From NCBI GenBank assembly GCA_030611415.1, contig JAUWPW010000002.1:19761-83760 (forward strand): a stretch of 64,000 nucleotides of DNA, in the 5' to 3' direction. Source of the stretch: Candidatus Bipolaricaulota bacterium (GTDB lineage: Bacteria > Bipolaricaulota > Bipolaricaulia > UBA7950 > UBA9294). Of the stretch, positions 4,810-58,233 are shown piece by piece. The number at the start of each line of letters is the position of its first letter. The stretch's first letter is position 1. Both the position numbers and the translations under genes were made by a program. The notes under the pieces were generated by a model. It worked only from the letters and a program-made list of their open reading frames with translations, was not told the DNA's origin and ran no database searches.

Positions 4810-5652
4810 ATGAACTGGTTAGAAAAATGGGAGGAGAAGAGGGATCGAGTACTAGTGATGGGGGTGTTGAATCTCACTCCGGACTCATTCTATGACGGAG
4901 GAAGCTATCCCACACAGAGGGCAGCGGTCAACCGTGCCCTGGAGATGGTGGATGAAGGAGCGGATATCATTGATATTGGCGGTGAGTCAAGCAGACCAGA
5001 CGCGGCGCCTGTCTCTGAACGTGAAGAGCTAGGCCGTGTTCTGCCAGTAATCAAGAGAATACGCAAGCAGAGCGAGATCATGTTATCCATTGATACTACC
5101 AAGGCAACGGTTGCCGCCGAGGCAATTGCGTGTGGTACAACAATCGTGAATGATATCAGTGCTCTTAGATCTGACCCTGGGATGGCTCGCGTGATAGCCA
5201 GAAACAAGGTCTTTCTCGTATTGATGCACATGCAAGGAACACCAAGGACAATGCAACACGACCCTATCTACGGTGATCCTGTTCGTGAGATTAGTGGCTT
5301 TCTGCAAGAACGAATCAAGGTTGCCCTAGGAGCTTCGATTCCTTGCCAGCGGATCATCGTTGATCCAGGAATTGGTTTCGGAAAGAAGCTTGAACATAAT
5401 CTAGTCATTCTACAAAACCTGAATAGATTTGCCACACTTGAGGTGCCAATACTTGTTGGGCTATCCCGTAAATCATTTATTGGACAGATCCTCGGCTCAG
5501 GTGCCGAGGATCGCTTGACTGCTACAATTGCCGCTAATGCGATCGCCGTAGCGAATGGAGCCAACATCATTCGCGTCCACGACGTAAAAGAAGGGAGAAG
5601 AACGGCTGACGTTGCTTGCCGTTTACGAAGAAGAAATGCTCAAGACAAATGA
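4810..5652 (+). CDS. folP: dihydropteroate synthase
   Basis: VMGVLNLTPDSFYDGG pterin-binding motif about 17 aa after the ATG at 4810. The ORF-track start 4723 adds a non-homologous N-terminus and is rejected. Confidence 0.85.
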   Translation: MNWLEKWEEKRDRVLVMGVLNLTPDSFYDGGSYPTQRAAVNRALEMVDEGADIIDIGGESSRPDAAPVSEREELGRVLPVIKRIRKQSEIMLSIDTTKATVAAEAIACGTTIVNDISALRSDPGMARVIARNKVFLVLMHMQGTPRTMQHDPIYGDPVREISGFLQERIKVALGASIPCQRIIVDPGIGFGKKLEHNLVILQNLNRFATLEVPILVGLSRKSFIGQILGSGAEDRLTATIAANAIAVANGANIIRVHDVKEGRRTADVACRLRRRNAQDK

Positions 5653-6085
5653 TTTCTTTGAACATCTTGGAAAAAAGCTCCCGGTAGAACTGTGTTTCAA
5701 AGGGATTTCAGCACCATCTCTGCAAGGATGCTTGCGAGAGGATATTGTTGCCGTCGGCCATGGCTTTGGGCAACTAGACAACATCTATTTGACACTCAGC
5801 ATTTCTACAACAATTGAGAGGCCTTGTTGCCGCTGCCTTGCTCCTGTCTACGCACGGATAAATCTGCGTGAGGTGTTCAAGATTAGAACTGAACCAACAG
5901 AGGACGAAATTGATCTATTGCCACATATTCTTGCGGCTATCCGCGCTTCACTTGATCCACATCCGCTTTGTCAACCCAATTGTCGGGGTCTGTGTCCAGT
6001 TTGCGGAATCAACCTTAATCAACACCCTGAACACAAACCACAATCGGCGGAAGTAGAGAAGCGAAAGCTGGCGGATTTCTTGTGA
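5612..6085 (+). CDS. DUF177 (YceD-like) protein with C-terminal Cys cluster
   Basis: About 150 aa with CCRC...C..C..C motif, placed like yceD. Start is ambiguous: TTG 5612 or ATG 5636. Both overlap the folP stop. Confidence 0.55.
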   Translation: MLAVYEEEMLKTNDFFEHLGKKLPVELCFKGISAPSLQGCLREDIVAVGHGFGQLDNIYLTLSISTTIERPCCRCLAPVYARINLREVFKIRTEPTEDEIDLLPHILAAIRASLDPHPLCQPNCRGLCPVCGINLNQHPEHKPQSAEVEKRKLADFL

Positions 6086-22765: not shown

Positions 22766-22809
22766 GAAGACCGACCCGAACCTTGGTCTTAGTTGCGTGG
22801 GATATACAA

Positions 22810-22897
22810 GATGTCCCTCCGCTGGCATTATCCAGATCAGGTTCCAAGGGTCGAGGTCTTACCTCCTCTCAGCCCAGAAATATGAGCTCCCCTGATA
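22810..22897 (-). promoter_or_regulatory. TPP (thiamine pyrophosphate) riboswitch aptamer
   Basis: Minus-strand reads cagGGGAGCucauauuucuGGGCUGAGAggagguaagaccucgACCCuugGAACCUGAUCUGGAUAAUGCCAGCGGAGGGA, the canonical THI-box core. Confidence 0.85.
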
Positions 22898-22902
22898 GAA
22901 TT

Positions 22903-22931
22903 ACTATACACCTACTAACGGCTCGAATCAA
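22903..22931 (-). promoter_or_regulatory. sigma70-like promoter for the riboswitch/thiL operon (TTGATT-17-TATAGT)
   Basis: Minus-strand -35 TTGATT (22931-22926), 17-nt spacer, -10 TATAGT (22908-22903). Predicted TSS falls at the riboswitch 5' end. Confidence 0.55.
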
Positions 22932-46052: not shown

Positions 46053-46361
46053 ATGCCATACTGGCTTACCTATCTAGAGCTAACAGCTTTAGGAGTGCTC
46101 TTGTTCTTTGTTATTGGCATAACGTGTGTTGCTTGCATTGTGTTCTTTCGATGCATAGTAATGCACAAGGGGCTTAACGATACAGTGCGGTACTGCAAGA
46201 TGTATAAATGGACAATTCTCTTGGTAGTAGCCATAACGGTACTGTTTTGGGGTCTGCATATGGGAATAAGGATACCGTGCTTCTCGATTATTGAGACTGG
46301 CCTTTTTGTTATAGGAACCATTTGGGTAGCTCGAGGAGTGCTTCCAGCACTGTTTACATGA
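46053..46361 (+). CDS. small 3-TM membrane protein (immunity-protein-like)
   Basis: About 102 aa, three hydrophobic helices; AGGAG SD 8 nt upstream; ATGA overlap with the next gene. Confidence 0.55.
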   Translation: MPYWLTYLELTALGVLLFFVIGITCVACIVFFRCIVMHKGLNDTVRYCKMYKWTILLVVAITVLFWGLHMGIRIPCFSIIETGLFVIGTIWVARGVLPALFT

Positions 46362-47053
46362 ATCCTGCCACGCACAACAACCCACCTAGTTTCCATCATA
46401 GCATAACAGGTTTGTTCCTGGCAGGCATTATCACGGCCACATTCTGGCTCTCAACCAACGGGTGGCCAGTGATCTCTTACAGGGAGCTCAGATACGAGAA
46501 CGTCGATCGACAAGAGGACTTTTACAGCTGTGGGCCAGCTGCACTTGCCACTATCTTCTCAGACTTCTTTGGAGTTCAGGTTAGTGAGAATGAATTTGCC
46601 AACTTCATTTCACATTATTCACGCCAGGATCCAGACAACAAATCAACCAAAGAGATTCCAGAGAACGGTGTTTCAATGCTCGATTTGAAACAGGCCAGTA
46701 TCAAGAAAGGGATCCCAGCTAAGGGATATGAAATACCCAAAGGTAACCTGGGCACAATCTTACACGAGCTCTCCCTACCCGTCCTAATTCACTTGGATAC
46801 ACCTGATGAACACTTTGTGGTCGCGGTAACTCAGGTTGGCCAGAGAATTGTGTTGGCTGATCCCTCATGGGGAATGAGGGTGATTTCTTTGGCAGAGCTT
46901 TGTCGGTGCTGGGACGGATTAGTCTTAGCATTCGCTCCAAACCAAAGAAGTGCGGATCGAGTCAAAGTGGTAATCCGACAGATTCAAGGAAAGATAGTGG
47001 AAGGAATGAAGACCCTTCAACTCTCCAAGATATTTCTATGGACACTGAGCTAA
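46358..47053 (+). CDS. membrane-anchored standalone papain-fold cysteine peptidase, C39-like domain
   Basis: N-terminal TM (GLFLAGIITATFWL), then DFYSCGPAALATIF (Cys), HFVVAV (His) and ADPSWG (Asp) in C39 order. Confidence 0.6.
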   Translation: MNPATHNNPPSFHHSITGLFLAGIITATFWLSTNGWPVISYRELRYENVDRQEDFYSCGPAALATIFSDFFGVQVSENEFANFISHYSRQDPDNKSTKEIPENGVSMLDLKQASIKKGIPAKGYEIPKGNLGTILHELSLPVLIHLDTPDEHFVVAVTQVGQRIVLADPSWGMRVISLAELCRCWDGLVLAFAPNQRSADRVKVVIRQIQGKIVEGMKTLQLSKIFLWTLS

Positions 47054-47793
47054 CTAAAAAGGTGTCGATTAGTATCATTTGCACACTAATAACACTTCTA
47101 CTCACTGCAACTACTGCCCAAGGGATAGATGCGCTCCAATTTCGGCAAGGAGAAAAGGCTTGGCAAATTACAGCACAAGTTTCAAGATACATCAATACCA
47201 TTCCGTACTATTCTGTAGATGATTGCGGCTTATGGCACAATGTTGACAAAACCGTTGGGCTCGTATTCAGCTTTGCCAGTTTCTTAGATATCACCAGCAA
47301 ATTGGCTGTTCAAGGCCAGTTCTCTCTTCATAGCGCCTCTGTATGGACTCGAAGGCTCAACCTTTACTACGGCACAGAACAGACCATAATGACTAAGACA
47401 AAAGAACTAGGACAAAGCTCTCTTAAGATAAGATACGTTTTTTACCAGACCCCAGACATAAAGGCCCATCTATCAATCCCCCTAATAGGGGACACTATCG
47501 GGATTGGATTCAGTTGGACGAGTGACCCTGTCATGGTTCTCCCAGAGATCAGGATTTCACCCACAGGCATTGAACTCCTGAGCGGGCTTACATTTGTCGC
47601 AAACACTAAGCTTGCACTAACGGCAAGAATACGCTTAGTAGAGCAAGCTGCTAGCTCAAAGATTGCCTTATCCATTGGCTTAGTTTACAGAAAAACAGAT
47701 TACGAAGGTGTTCAAGTTGTTGGAACAATAGTAAGGGGAGATTCCACTCAGGTAAATATCCAGCTAGGTGTATGTTATGGGAGAGAGCAGTAA
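47038..47793 (+). CDS. secreted beta-strand-rich protein (hypothetical)
   Basis: Signal peptide KKVSISIICTLITLLLTATTAQG followed by alternating hydrophobic/polar strands; overlaps the previous gene by 16 nt. Confidence 0.5.
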   Translation: MDTELTKKVSISIICTLITLLLTATTAQGIDALQFRQGEKAWQITAQVSRYINTIPYYSVDDCGLWHNVDKTVGLVFSFASFLDITSKLAVQGQFSLHSASVWTRRLNLYYGTEQTIMTKTKELGQSSLKIRYVFYQTPDIKAHLSIPLIGDTIGIGFSWTSDPVMVLPEIRISPTGIELLSGLTFVANTKLALTARIRLVEQAASSKIALSIGLVYRKTDYEGVQVVGTIVRGDSTQVNIQLGVCYGREQ

Positions 47794-47868
47794 CGACACC
47801 ACGCATTGACAACAACATGGCTTGACAGCGATCCATGATTGACTTATATTGCAACGTGGGATCTTATT

Positions 47869-47940
47869 GGGCCCATAGCTCAGCGGCAGAGCAACCGGCT
47901 CATAACCGGTCGGTCCCAGGTTCGAACCCTGGTGGGCCCA
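47869..47940 (+). tRNA. tRNA-Met (anticodon CAT; elongator type, could be tRNA-Ile2 if lysidinylated)
   Basis: Cloverleaf folds by hand: acceptor GGGCCCA/TGGGCCC, D stem GCTC/GAGC, anticodon stem ACCGG/CCGGT with loop CTCATAA, T stem CCAGG/CCTGG with TTCGAAC loop. The 1:72 pair is intact, so it is not an initiator. CCA not encoded. Confidence 0.85.
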
Positions 47941-47949
47941 CAGGAAACT

Positions 47950-48471
47950 ATGGAGAAACTATTTGTTTACGTGGCCGGTAAGGTACGAGGTAAGCCAGGA
48001 GCGGCTGCGATCGGGATTGCTATTACAGACAAACAGGGAAACGTCATAGAAGAGGTTTCCAGGCTCATTGGCAGGAGTATCCCACAAGCAGTTGTGTACC
48101 AAGCCCTGATAGAAGGATGCAAACGAACGCTTGCTTACTCGCCACAGTCAGTGATATTCTTCATCGACAACCAATCCGTAGTGAATCAACTGAATGGGAT
48201 CTTGGAAAGTCGACAACCCCACCTACAGCATCTGCTAGAAATAAGCAAGGGTTACCTGAACAAGTTCCCAGAATGGCGGGTTAATTTCATCGATAGCAAT
48301 GTTAATCGGAAGGCACCCCGTCTTGTCGAACGAGCGTTCCATAATCGTATCCAGGCAGAAATGACGCATGAACACCTCGATCTACGCTTACTGGCCTATA
48401 CAGCTTCGCTCAGTAATTCCGATATGGAGCAATTGATTGAGCACGCCAAGCACTTGCAGGATAAGAGGTAA
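47950..48471 (+). CDS. RNase H type-1-like domain protein
   Basis: LFVYVAGKVRGKPGAAAIGIAITD resembles the DGASRGNPGPAG motif of RNase HI-like proteins. Starts 10 nt after the tRNA; the ORF-track start 47839 overlaps the tRNA and is rejected. Confidence 0.6.
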   Translation: MEKLFVYVAGKVRGKPGAAAIGIAITDKQGNVIEEVSRLIGRSIPQAVVYQALIEGCKRTLAYSPQSVIFFIDNQSVVNQLNGILESRQPHLQHLLEISKGYLNKFPEWRVNFIDSNVNRKAPRLVERAFHNRIQAEMTHEHLDLRLLAYTASLSNSDMEQLIEHAKHLQDKR

Positions 48472-48991: not shown

Positions 48992-49180
48992 ATGCCTGTA
49001 CCCAAGTATCGAACGTCACGATCAAAGGCACGAATGCGCCGCTCACATCAAGCAATGTCCGTACTGACAGTGAGCGAGTGCCCCCACTGCCATGAACCAA
49101 AACTTCCTCACCGTGTCTGTCCACACTGTGGCTACTACAACGGAATAGAGGTCATTGCGGTTTCCAAGAAAGAAAAGTAG
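48992..49180 (+). CDS. rpmF: 50S ribosomal protein L32
   Basis: MPVPKYRTSRSKARMRRSH N-terminus plus CPHC...CPHCG zinc ribbon; GGAG SD. Confidence 0.85.
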   Translation: MPVPKYRTSRSKARMRRSHQAMSVLTVSECPHCHEPKLPHRVCPHCGYYNGIEVIAVSKKEK

Positions 49181-49394
49181 ACACTGCCTCACCAACTTGT
49201 TTATCTTCCCGATCGATCTCGTACATCTTATTTCGTTTTCCGGCTGTTTCGTACTCCTTTCATGGCTTGGGCGGCTTGGTTCCTATAAAGGGATACCTGT
49301 ACTGTCGAGAAAAACCCATCTTCCTTGCCCACTGCATATACCCAGCCTATTGACTTTTCCCCTTTGCATACGGAGAATTGTCTAGAGACCAAAA

Positions 49395-50759
49395 ATGGCA
49401 AACAAAGAGCAGACCGACAACTTACACCCGGAGAGCAAGGTAGCTGATAATTGGCGAGCGGTGCTAGCAGCTATTGACGACCGCATCCTTCGAGTGTGCC
49501 TCCCCAAGGACCCTGAGCGTATCACACTTGACAAGGAGCAAATTATCATTGCAGTAGACAGCGAGTTCAAGAAGGAATACTGCCAGCGCAAACTTCCCAA
49601 GATAGAGGAAACGGTTGCCAAAGTATTTGGGCCACGGTGTGTCGTAATAGGCGAACCGCCGCTTGTTGAACGTGCTCGTCAAACACAACCCCACGCAAGG
49701 ATATCTGCGCACATTGCAGTCTTAGGAATTGGCGATGGTGGAATAAATGCCATCAACAGAATGCGTGAAGAAAACCTTCAGGGGGTAAAACTAATCGCAG
49801 TCGATACTGACAAGCAGATATTAGGGATTTCTCGTGCTCATGACACCCTTCAACTTGGTCTTGACATCACCGGTGGGCGCGGAACAGGTGGCGATGTAAC
49901 AAAGGGGCGAAAAGCGGCAATAGAATCCCATTGGGAAATTGCAAACCTACTAGAAGGCATGGATCTTGTGTTTGTTACTGCCGGGCTCGGCGGAGGAACT
50001 GGAACGGGAGCTGCTCCGATTATTGCTGAGATCGCCAAAGAGAACCACGCGCTGACAATCGGTGTCGTAACCAAACCCTTTTCCTTTGAAGGGATTGTGC
50101 GGGCAAAGCGGGCCGAGGACGGATTAGCTCAGCTGGCAGAAGCAACAGATGTCTCGATCACTATCTCCAACGATCGCCTACTTGAGACTGCCGCTAAGGG
50201 AATAGCGATGACGAAGGCGTTCGAACTAGCTGATAGAATCCTTTTTCAGGGGGTACAAGGAATATCAGATCTAATAACAATTCGTGGTTTAGTCAACCTT
50301 GATTTCGCTGACATTCGCAATGTTCTCATCAATGCAGGTACAGCAATGATGGGAATGGGGAAAGCACGTGGAGACCAACGAGCAATTGCTGCTGCCAAAT
50401 CAGCAAGCACGAATCCACTCCTGGAGGGAGGCTCAATCCGAGGAGCGCGAAAGATGATTATGAATGTCACTGGGGGACAAGATCTGACACTGCAAGAGGT
50501 AACACAAGCTGCAGATGTAATCCGCAAGATGGCAGCAATCGAGTGTGACCTTGTGTTTGGCGCAGTCATACGTGAAAACCTCGGAAACCAGACACAGATC
50601 ACCGTAATTGCTGCTGACTTTCAGGAGACATCGCAGGAAGGACTACTAAGCGAAGGCAAGCCCCGCCGTGAGCGAATCAACAAAGATACAGACCTTACTA
50701 TTCCTGCTTTTGTGCGAAGGAGGCGCGACACTGAAAGTAAGTCCGATTCAACCGGCTAA
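49395..50759 (+). CDS. ftsZ: cell division GTPase FtsZ with about 100-aa N-terminal extension
   Basis: Core GIGDGGINAINRM and GGGTGTGAAPIIA tubulin motifs start at about residue 105. No in-frame ATG/GTG/TTG separates the extension from the core. Confidence 0.8.
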   Translation: MANKEQTDNLHPESKVADNWRAVLAAIDDRILRVCLPKDPERITLDKEQIIIAVDSEFKKEYCQRKLPKIEETVAKVFGPRCVVIGEPPLVERARQTQPHARISAHIAVLGIGDGGINAINRMREENLQGVKLIAVDTDKQILGISRAHDTLQLGLDITGGRGTGGDVTKGRKAAIESHWEIANLLEGMDLVFVTAGLGGGTGTGAAPIIAEIAKENHALTIGVVTKPFSFEGIVRAKRAEDGLAQLAEATDVSITISNDRLLETAAKGIAMTKAFELADRILFQGVQGISDLITIRGLVNLDFADIRNVLINAGTAMMGMGKARGDQRAIAAAKSASTNPLLEGGSIRGARKMIMNVTGGQDLTLQEVTQAADVIRKMAAIECDLVFGAVIRENLGNQTQITVIAADFQETSQEGLLSEGKPRRERINKDTDLTIPAFVRRRRDTESKSDSTG

Positions 50760-50803: not shown

Positions 50804-51751
50804 TCAACAACAAGAACTCTTGCCTGCACGTTGGCTTTCATTCTCTTCATAGGCTTGTATGATTCGTGCCACAAGGGGATGGCGTACAACATCCCTCTTG
50901 TCAAGGATAACAAACGAAATATCATCAATCCCTTTCAGGATTCCCTGCACAGCAGCAAGACCGGACGCTCCTTCCTCAAGATCAATCTGGGTTATGTCAC
51001 CAGTGACAACAGCCTTGGAATGGAACCCCAAGCGTGTTAAGAACATCTTCATCTGGATCGATGTTGTGTTTTGCGCTTCATCGAGGATGACGAAGCTGTT
51101 GTTCAGCGTACGGCCACGCATAAATGCTAGCGGTGCCATCTCAATTCTGCCAAGCTCAACCAACTTCTCAAACTCTCCAGCTGGAATCATGTCATAGATT
51201 GCGTCATACAACGGACGTAGGTATGGGTTTACCTTAGCCTGAATATCACCAGGAAGAAACCCAAGTTCCTCGCCAGCCTCTACTGCAGGCCGTGTAAGAA
51301 TAATGCGTTTTACCTTTCCTTTCTTTAGCCAATCAATTGCCATTGCAATTGCGAGGTAGGTTTTCCCCGTTCCTGCTGGCCCAATGGAGAAGACAATATC
51401 CTTGTTACGAATAGCCTCAATGTAGAGATGCTGTCCAGCTGTCTTGGCACGAATCTCCTCACCCCAGTGAGTTACACGTACAACATCAGAAAGAACACCA
51501 TCAAGGCTTCTTCCTTCCTTGACTTGCGTGATTAAGTAGCGCAGCTCGTCCAAACTGGGAACGTGCTCACTCTTGACAACATCAATAAGTTTGTTGAACA
51601 GTGAACGAACTTGCTCAACCTCCTCACTTGTTCCTTCAATACGGATAATTTCTCCGCGGGCAACTACCGTTGCAGAGAATGACTTCTCGATCTCCTTCAC
51701 GTTGCAGTTGAACTTGCCAAGAAGAGCCGTTGGTTCCACAGTGTCACGCAA
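50804..51751 (-). CDS. phoH: PhoH-like ATPase
   Basis: GPAGTGKTYLAIAMA Walker A and PhoH domain, 315 aa. Confidence 0.85.
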   Translation of the reverse strand: MRDTVEPTALLGKFNCNVKEIEKSFSATVVARGEIIRIEGTSEEVEQVRSLFNKLIDVVKSEHVPSLDELRYLITQVKEGRSLDGVLSDVVRVTHWGEEIRAKTAGQHLYIEAIRNKDIVFSIGPAGTGKTYLAIAMAIDWLKKGKVKRIILTRPAVEAGEELGFLPGDIQAKVNPYLRPLYDAIYDMIPAGEFEKLVELGRIEMAPLAFMRGRTLNNSFVILDEAQNTTSIQMKMFLTRLGFHSKAVVTGDITQIDLEEGASGLAAVQGILKGIDDISFVILDKRDVVRHPLVARIIQAYEENESQRAGKSSCC

Positions 51752-54964: not shown

Positions 54965-58072
<3,108 letters not shown>

Positions 58073-58105: not shown

Positions 58106-58223
58106 TCCAGGTGATATATAGCAGAGGGGTCACACCCGTTACCATACCGAACACGGAAGTTAAGTCCTCTAGCGCCGATGGTACTAGCCTTGCGAGGGGC
58201 TGGGAGAGTAGGTCATTGCCTGG
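58106..58223 (+). rRNA. rrf: 5S ribosomal RNA
   Basis: CCGAACACGGAAGTTAAG...AGCGCCGATGGTACT...GAGAGTAGG conserved 5S blocks; terminal helix CCAGGUGAU / AUUGCCUGG. Confidence 0.85.
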
Positions 58224-58233
58224 TTTCTTTTTT
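58205..58233 (+). terminator. T-tract (TTTCTTTTTT) following the 5S terminal helix
   Basis: U-run directly after the 5S closing stem; end of the rRNA operon. Confidence 0.4.

Follow-up and report, generated by a model that had tools for sequence, protein, structure and literature searches.

A predicted DnaA-domain-I-like domain at the N-terminus of FtsZ in Bipolaricaulota

The cell division gene ftsZ of a Candidatus Bipolaricaulota bacterium lies at positions 49395–50759 on the plus strand of a 64,000-nucleotide stretch of contig JAUWPW010000002.1 (assembly GCA_030611415.1, positions 19,761 to 83,760; hereafter the window), and its open reading frame (ORF) encodes a protein of 454 residues in which an otherwise standard FtsZ is preceded by an additional N-terminal domain. 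The upstream neighbor is rpmF, encoding ribosomal protein L32 (48992–49180, plus strand; Ribosomal_L32p, E 4.2e-25), and a gene for a PhoH-like ATPase converges on ftsZ from downstream (50804–51751, minus strand; PhoH, E 7e-94). The NCBIfam equivalog model for FtsZ (TIGR00065) covers residues 101–420 and, at 348 bits with a cut-off of 295.2, places the product in this family. Pfam scanning delimits the Tubulin/FtsZ GTPase domain (PF00091) at residues 107–265 (49713–50189; E 1.7e-43) and the FtsZ C-terminal domain (FtsZ_C, PF12327) at residues 315–410 (50337–50624; E 2.4e-26). The signatures of the family are readable in the translation, namely GGGTGTG at 197–203, the T7-loop sequence NLDFAD at 301–306, and DLTIPAFVRR at 433–442, and all three are invariant or conserved in an alignment of 38 sequences, where the consensus of the C-terminal peptide is DLDVPTFLRR. 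This last motif is the canonical peptide bound by FtsA, SepF, and ZipA; in the window protein it follows a disordered linker (linker 413–432 and peptide DLTIPAFVRRR 433–443, together 50631–50723; predicted local distance difference test score, pLDDT, <50 at 413–429). The identical 454-residue protein is found on four independent metagenome contigs. A genome scan using one genome per species recovered 11 Bipolaricaulota ftsZ loci from 11 different metagenome-assembled genomes (MAGs), none of which contained the gene twice, although the peptide patterns were taken from this FtsZ and a divergent paralogue could escape them.

The boundaries of the Pfam and TIGR00065 matches leave about 105 residues ahead of the tubulin core. 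This agrees with the original prediction, a reading of the DNA letters alone, which had described an extension of roughly 100 residues (49395–49710) before a core starting at about residue 105; the residues that it quoted from the extension (WRAVLAAIDDRILRV...EFKKEYCQRK...GPRCVVI) occur exactly so in the translation. Conservation and structure prediction divide the extension into three parts: a variable tail of residues 1–18 that is predicted to be disordered (49395–49448; mean identity 0.16; pLDDT <50 at 1–11), a predicted DnaA-domain-I-like domain with a type II KH fold at residues 19–86 (49449–49652), hereafter the N-domain, and a connector of residues 87–104 (49653–49706), which opens with (I)GEPPLVEQA and then runs on as some 10 residues of flexible linker. 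The segment I-G-E-P-P-L-V-E-Q-A itself (residues 85–94, 49647–49676) is at least 90% conserved at I85, G86, E87, P89, L90, and E92. In the full-length AlphaFold2 model, a short helix is predicted at 89–96 with low confidence, and pLDDT falls below 50 at 92–103; the segment may serve for docking or as a hinge.

Translation of the extension was assessed from the start codon onward. An in-frame stop lies three codons 5′ of the ftsZ ATG, and the first in-frame ATG or TTG after the start is the codon of M123, inside the GTPase domain. The earlier claim that no alternative in-frame start exists thus holds for ATG and TTG but not for GTG, which occurs twice in the extension, at V23 and V34. These two GTG codons were tried as internal starts and rejected because they have no Shine-Dalgarno sequence, lie downstream of the invariant W20, and fall in a segment under purifying selection. 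The ATG at 49395 is itself preceded by no clear Shine-Dalgarno sequence, only by a weak AGAGA, and this would fit an annotation or assembly artefact, with an internal true start or with two genes fused by a frameshift or misassembly, in which case the cell would make no extended FtsZ. In two orthologues, AGGAGAG is present at Shine-Dalgarno distance. Upstream of four orthologues with 71–91% protein identity, the hexamers TTGACT and GAGAAT and the ATG column are invariant, while the remaining spacer has diverged; in the window, this promoter-like site, located by a consensus scan (TTGACT-17 nt-GAGAAT, 49350–49378, plus strand), ends 16 nt upstream of the ATG. Conservation of the site and of the ATG speaks for the start as annotated and for ftsZ as a transcription unit of its own behind a short leader, and TTGACT-17-GAGAAT is the putative ftsZ promoter.

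Conservation was followed through the 120 closest FtsZ clusters, which are the best matches listed, and through a nonredundant alignment of 36 orthologues. All 120 listed clusters contain the N-domain, at 60–98% identity, mostly with lengths of 445–470 residues and with 91–100% query coverage; where source names are given, they are Candidatus Bipolaricaulota, Bipolaricaulia, or Acetothermia. Each of these clusters shares the segment W-R-x-V-L-x-x-I-D-D-R-I-L-R-A-C-L-P ... V-D-S-E-F-K-K-E-Y-C-x-R-K ... G-P-R-x-V-V-I-G-E-P-P-L. Across the 36 orthologues, in which the extension is 48–67% identical, 13 of its positions are invariant, and the invariant residues of the N-domain comprise W20, D29, L32, C35, L36, P37, S56, F58, K59, Y62, K66, and G79. 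Mean identity to the window FtsZ is 0.60 for the domain and 0.72–0.73 for the core, as against 0.16 and 0.14 for the N- and C-terminal tails. Ratios of nonsynonymous to synonymous substitution rates (dN/dS; Nei-Gojobori, window ftsZ against four orthologous loci) are 0.08–0.21 for the N-domain, 0.11–0.12 for the core, and 0.4–0.7 for the tails, with 0.15–0.47 given for residues 1–18. The 13 invariant positions and the low dN/dS show that the extension is not a chance ORF: the N-domain is translated, is under purifying selection, and is conserved in all relatives found. Its absence from orthologues, which had been named as an outcome that would overturn the original prediction, is therefore not what is seen. 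An artefact is practically negligible as an explanation, given that the same architecture recurs in the listed clusters from independent assemblies and in the 11 MAGs, that the ATG column is invariant behind a conserved promoter-like site implying a short leader, that two orthologues have AGGAGAG at the proper distance, and that the domain combines this dN/dS with a confidently predicted fold and with no ATG or TTG before M123. Among the cysteines, Cys35 (49497–49499) is invariant and Cys63 (49581–49583) is nearly so, with Val in its place in P0130, the most divergent orthologue; if the two lie near each other in the fold, they could make up a redox or metal site.

The phylogenetic reach of the N-domain was examined by genome scanning and by profile search. 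The 11 Bipolaricaulota MAG loci match from residues 1–20 onward. Three of these MAGs, titled "uncultured Thermotogae bacterium" (L013, L014, and L017), encode a Bipolaricaulota-type FtsZ with the N-domain, at 65–66% identity; their taxonomic labels are probably wrong, or else the domain reaches beyond the phylum as currently labeled. The nearest outgroup found, a Poribacteria FtsZ with 45% identity, matches residues 104–418 only and has its own core starting at about residue 15, so that the nearest outside match of the genome scan is without the N-domain. When 1.84 billion representative proteins were searched with the N-domain profile, 15 matches emerged. FtsZ or fragments of it account for 13 of them, among these P0130, a more divergent full-length FtsZ that retains the domain at 51% overall identity. 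P0132 and P0136 were rejected as carriers: both look like artificial tandem repeats, and their match, to a short LRACL-like word, is spurious. No DnaX or DnaA protein appeared at E ≤ 0.001 in the profile search, and word-indexed searches, run with the domain by itself and with its alignment, returned FtsZ fragments only and no other architecture. The profile search, with FtsZ as the sole credible carrier, speaks against both a recent duplication of dnaX or dnaA and a free-standing form of the N-domain; at the level of detectable sequence similarity, the domain is confined to the FtsZ of this lineage.

AlphaFold2 applied to the domain alignment predicts the order α1-α2-β1-β2-α3-β3 with a mean pLDDT of 75. 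In the full-length model, residues 12–86 reach pLDDT 83–90, with helices at 12–26, 30–35, and 57–78 and strands at 43–45, 49–53, and 82–86. The best Foldseek match of the model in the PDB is domain I of Bacillus subtilis DnaA (4TPS; probability 0.99, template modeling (TM) scores 0.61/0.67, root-mean-square deviation 2.9 Å over 84 columns). Further matches are the Vibrio cholerae helicase loader DciA (8A3V), the DnaA N-terminal domains of Escherichia coli (2E0G) and Mycoplasma genitalium (2JMP), FliK (2RRL), and RbfA, the last being among the weaker matches together with ribosomal KH proteins. A grouping of this kind has been described by Marsin et al., in which DnaA domain I, domain V of DnaX tau, and the N-terminal domain of DciA share a type II KH fold; an HHpred search with DciA in that work also returned FliK (PMC8216460).

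Sequence profiles point to the same group. When the 36 orthologues were scanned one by one against Pfam, the three families matched most often were DnaX_C (14 of 36, best E 4.1e-5), DnaA_N (14 of 36, best E 3.4e-3), and DnaA_N-like_STI (12 of 36, best E 1.2e-3), all of them sub-threshold matches; every other family was matched by at most two orthologues. Among the NCBIfam DnaX models, PRK14948 gives local matches to 30 of the orthologues and PRK14963 to 12, and the window FtsZ itself matches PRK14948 locally at E 1.5e-5 (model positions 432–512 of 640). By these scores, the closest sequence relatives of the N-domain are the C-terminal domains of DnaX tau rather than DnaA. An alignment of the N-domain profile by hhalign with a template of two sequences, DnaA domain I from E. 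coli and from B. subtilis, both verified against 2E0G and 4TPS, spans 64 columns at E 1.3e-4. It pairs W20 with Trp6 of E. coli DnaA, S56 with Asn44, F58 with Phe46, Y62 with Trp50, K66 with Lys54, and G79 with Gly68. The DnaA_N signature positions are thus occupied with two substitutions, Ser56 for Asn44 and Tyr62 for Trp50, and W20, S56, F58, and Y62 are invariant among the orthologues. The position-by-position resemblance to DnaA domain I noted at the outset is borne out by this alignment, by 4TPS as the top Foldseek match, and by the sub-threshold DnaA_N matches; the AlphaFold model suggested as a check likewise predicts the DnaA-domain-I fold. The suggested profile check against DnaA_N (PF11638) gave matches below threshold in 14 of the 36 orthologues but nothing at E ≤ 10 for the window protein; profile similarity does exist, and the lack of it, part of the other outcome named as overturning the prediction, is not what is seen.

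The members of this fold group differ in how closely they parallel the N-domain. DnaA domain I (PF11638; 4TPS, 2E0G, and 2JMP) shares the α-α-β-β-α-β type II KH fold and is the best match of solved structure. Both domains are N-terminal and joined by a flexible linker to the remainder of the protein, and both have at aligned positions a Trp in α1 and (N/S)-x-F...(W/Y) at the start of α3. DnaA domain I sits on an AAA+ initiator, whereas the FtsZ domain sits on a tubulin-like GTPase, and the similarity lies below the Pfam cut-off; moreover, an invariant Cys stands where E. coli DnaA has Glu21. The C-terminal domain of DnaX tau (DnaX_C, PF20964; PRK14948 and PRK14963; STICHEL, PF23007, in plants) is the closest by sequence and belongs to the same fold group (PMC8216460), but it is C-terminal on a clamp-loader ATPase, and here too the scores are below cut-off. 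The N-terminal domain of DciA (DUF721; 8A3V), a KH type II or DnaA-N-like fold recovered by Foldseek, comes from a helicase loader whose N-terminal helix is long, aligns with a lower TM score of 0.42, and has no detected sequence similarity to the FtsZ domain; the conserved Trp of DciA is functionally important (PMC5720831).

The type II KH fold also raises the question of nucleic-acid binding. A KH-type N-domain could bind single-stranded DNA or RNA and thereby position or inhibit FtsZ relative to the nucleoid, and for this speak the fold, the appearance of RbfA and ribosomal KH proteins among the weaker Foldseek matches, and the weak binding of single-stranded DNA by domain I of E. coli DnaA (PMC5448010). 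The GxxG loop, however, is absent from the N-domain in all 36 orthologues, and the mean net charge of the domain among them is about −0.5. On these two features, canonical KH binding of nucleic acid was rejected, and the conserved residues fall on the protein-binding positions of DnaA and not on a basic surface; nucleic-acid binding of any kind is very improbable.

The functional reading follows from the conserved positions. In E. coli DnaA, Trp6 and helix α1 mediate head-to-head dimerization of domain I, while the opposite face binds DnaB through Glu21 and Phe46 and DiaA through Asn44, Phe46, and Trp50 (PMC5448010). The positions of both the dimerization and the DnaB/DiaA-binding patches are preserved in the FtsZ domain. 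The invariance of Trp and of (S)-x-F...Y at these interaction positions favors a protein–protein interaction module, and by analogy with DnaA, the N-domain is most likely such a module, either self-associating or docking a partner. The reading that we prefer, with a probability of roughly 60%, is that this is the housekeeping FtsZ of Bipolaricaulota with an acquired DnaA-domain-I-like N-domain that serves as a built-in interaction module and most probably self-associates. FtsZ in the phylum would have gained a folded domain (residues 19–86), joined through GEPPLVEQA and the roughly 10-residue linker to an otherwise canonical FtsZ, and the gene would be transcribed from its own conserved promoter-like site outside any dcw operon. 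The N-domain would be displayed on the protofilament face opposite the membrane-tethering C-terminus. As the most probable step, the Trp patch would self-associate and cross-link protofilaments, making the domain an internal Zap-like bundler, and the Ser-x-Phe patch may in addition dock a lineage-specific partner.

Several observations weigh against this reading. The full-length model has a predicted TM score of 0.65 and a linker with pLDDT <50, which leaves the geometry between domain and core undefined. The placement of the domain leans on the "inside-out" Z-rings of E. coli FtsZ reportedly obtained by Osawa and Erickson, in which the N- and C-termini are said to lie on opposite faces of the protofilament; with the termini so arranged, the N-domain would point away from the membrane. 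On the structural side, the Foldseek E-value of the N-domain model is 0.08, and a search of PDB sequences with the N-domain profile gave only chance-level matches (E ≥ 0.3). The hhalign probability is only 54%, with a template of two sequences. The window FtsZ scores 15.2 bits (E 0.022) against DnaX_C, below the gathering threshold of 26.2 bits, and does not reach the gathering threshold of DnaA_N; all Pfam scores of the N-domain to these two families lie under the curated cut-offs. Finally, DnaA domain I of Helicobacter pylori does not self-associate (PMC5448010), so the fold alone is no predictor of dimerization. Because the thresholds are not reached and the protein contexts that define the two families differ, the N-domain is placed by structure modeling in the DnaA-N-like or type II KH fold group and outside formal membership of DnaA_N or DnaX_C.

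Two alternatives to self-association concern the partner of the module. The N-domain could, without self-associating, recruit or respond to a division-specific partner, such as a lineage-specific divisome regulator or a membrane anchor; a substitute for a Zap, Min, or nucleoid-occlusion protein would be one example. Conservation in the domain is highest at the α2/α3 patch (DDRILRACLP and DSEFKKEYC), the hot spot of DnaA for binding heterologous partners (PMC5448010), and ftsZ is uncoupled from ftsA and the dcw genes across the phylum. Yet no candidate partner gene is conserved beside ftsZ, where the neighbors are dtd, rpmF, phoH, and a MiaB-like gene, and the canonical anchor-recruiting C-terminal peptide is still in place; we regard such docking as conceivable but somewhat unlikely. 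Alternatively, having retained the ancestral binding specificity of its replication relatives, the domain could couple division to replication by binding the DnaB helicase, the α subunit of Pol III, DnaA, or a DnaA regulator, so that Z-ring assembly would be tied physically to the status of replication or to where the replisome lies. Among its recognizable relatives are DnaA domain I, DnaX tau, and DciA, replication proteins that contact DnaB or Pol III α through this fold, and the position of Phe46, which binds DnaB and DiaA, is an invariant Phe in FtsZ, with S56 and Y62 on the positions of Asn44 and Trp50. Against this, hhalign aligns an invariant Cys with Glu21, which in E. coli DnaA is the second residue to bind DnaB, and the fold also occurs in nonreplication proteins such as FliK and RbfA-like KH domains. 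The similarity to DnaX and DnaA is moreover remote, with neither protein retrieved by the profile search at its E-value limit, which implies a long time for partner specificity to change. Coupling of this sort is unlikely. Distinctly doubtful, too, is the specific proposal that a component of the replisome or of initiation (DnaB helicase, Pol III α, DnaA, or a regulator of these) is bound at the Ser56-x-Phe58/Tyr62 patch, in which case FtsZ would be hard-wired to sense chromosome replication or to place itself by it.

A lineage-specific N-terminal addition to FtsZ has been described in cyanobacteria. The abstract of a study on Anabaena reports that residues 2–51 of FtsZ, an N-terminal peptide found in heterocyst-forming cyanobacteria, are needed for normal polymerization and division (PMC6175996). 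As far as that abstract goes, this conserved lineage-specific addition is the nearest functional analogy to the N-domain; it differs in being a peptide of about 50 residues for which the abstract gives neither a fold nor a relation to replication proteins (PMC6175996). No cyanobacterial FtsZ was among the matches of the N-domain profile search over the 1.84 billion representatives, which indicates that the two additions are unrelated in sequence. The literature searched, on FtsZ of Bipolaricaulota or Acetothermia and on FtsZ with DnaA domain I, yielded no description of the N-domain; the Ran1 genome paper leaves fts genes unmentioned, and the precomputed Pfam annotations of the orthologues show Tubulin and FtsZ_C only, with the N-domain unflagged. 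To our knowledge, and in agreement with the abstracts retrieved, though short of a systematic survey, published N-terminal additions to FtsZ are short peptides, amphipathic helices, or transit peptides, not folded domains of a replication-protein fold.

FtsZ is among the most studied bacterial proteins, and here every sampled member of a phylum carries on it a folded domain, as predicted, from a superfamily known mainly from replication proteins (DnaA, DnaX, and DciA). Were the domain to bundle filaments, it would be a natural case of FtsZ with a fused Zap-like function; were it to bind replisome proteins, it would be a new kind of cell-cycle coupling, with the device built into the division protein. 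Bipolaricaulota have been described as deep-branching, and strain J31, the first pure culture of the phylum, reported in 2025, divides by binary fission with a mid-cell septum (bioRxiv 10.1101/2025.11.21.689855). With a septating strain in culture, the function of the N-domain is now open to experiment.

The genomic setting of ftsZ is shared within the lineage. According to a Pfam scan of the neighbors, the order at the locus is a gene for an RVT_3/RNase H-like protein, dtd, rpmF, ftsZ, phoH, a MiaB-like radical S-adenosylmethionine gene, lytR, and rsfS. These neighbors are shared with orthologues of 60–70% identity, and the arrangement RVT_3-dtd-rpmF-ftsZ ... phoH-miaB-like, lytR-rsfS recurs in orthologues of 60–66% identity, with rpmF in the same position at the orthologous locus L004 and phoH kept nearby in L001–L005. 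No dcw or ftsA gene occurs among 20 neighboring and distal ORFs of the window, nor within 10 kb on either side of two distant orthologues, which accords with the earlier description of an ftsZ flanked by rpmF (ending at 49180) and the convergent phoH outside any dcw or ftsA context. The synteny in distant orthologues indicates that this location of ftsZ is ancestral in the lineage. In the Poribacteria outgroup, ftsA lies upstream of ftsZ; between the two in MAG L016 (6659–11275), there is a transposase-like ORF of 410 residues on the opposite strand.

Further features of the window were recorded alongside. The genes yceD and rpmF are adjacent in many bacteria; here yceD (DUF177, 5612–6085) is about 43 kb from rpmF, which is paired instead with dtd and ftsZ, a pairing conserved in the phylum. 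For the RVT_3/RNase H-like gene, the longest ORF (47839–48471) has a tRNA-Met gene (CAT, 47869–47941) within its 5′ part, and the real gene is probably the 173-residue version called on the identical metagenome contigs. At 46322–47793, a Peptidase_C39 protein (E 5.9e-20) is followed by an overlapping ORF of 308 residues without a Pfam match, and a 139-residue protein upstream also lacks a match; together they may form a small module for secretion or of a bacteriocin-like kind. Directly after rsfS come genes for 23S rRNA (54968–58069) and 5S rRNA (58107–58224). No 16S rRNA gene lies upstream within the window, so the rRNA genes appear unlinked. The 23S gene measures 3102 nt against 2925 nt for the Rfam model, leaving about 177 nt in all to one or more insertions, and an Rfam E-value scan of the region found no intron or intervening-sequence family. 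A thiamine pyrophosphate riboswitch (22797–22903, minus strand; 71.9 bits) stands upstream of a minus-strand operon that, by the look of the ORF translations, contains a thiamine-related gene followed by components of an ATP-binding cassette transporter.

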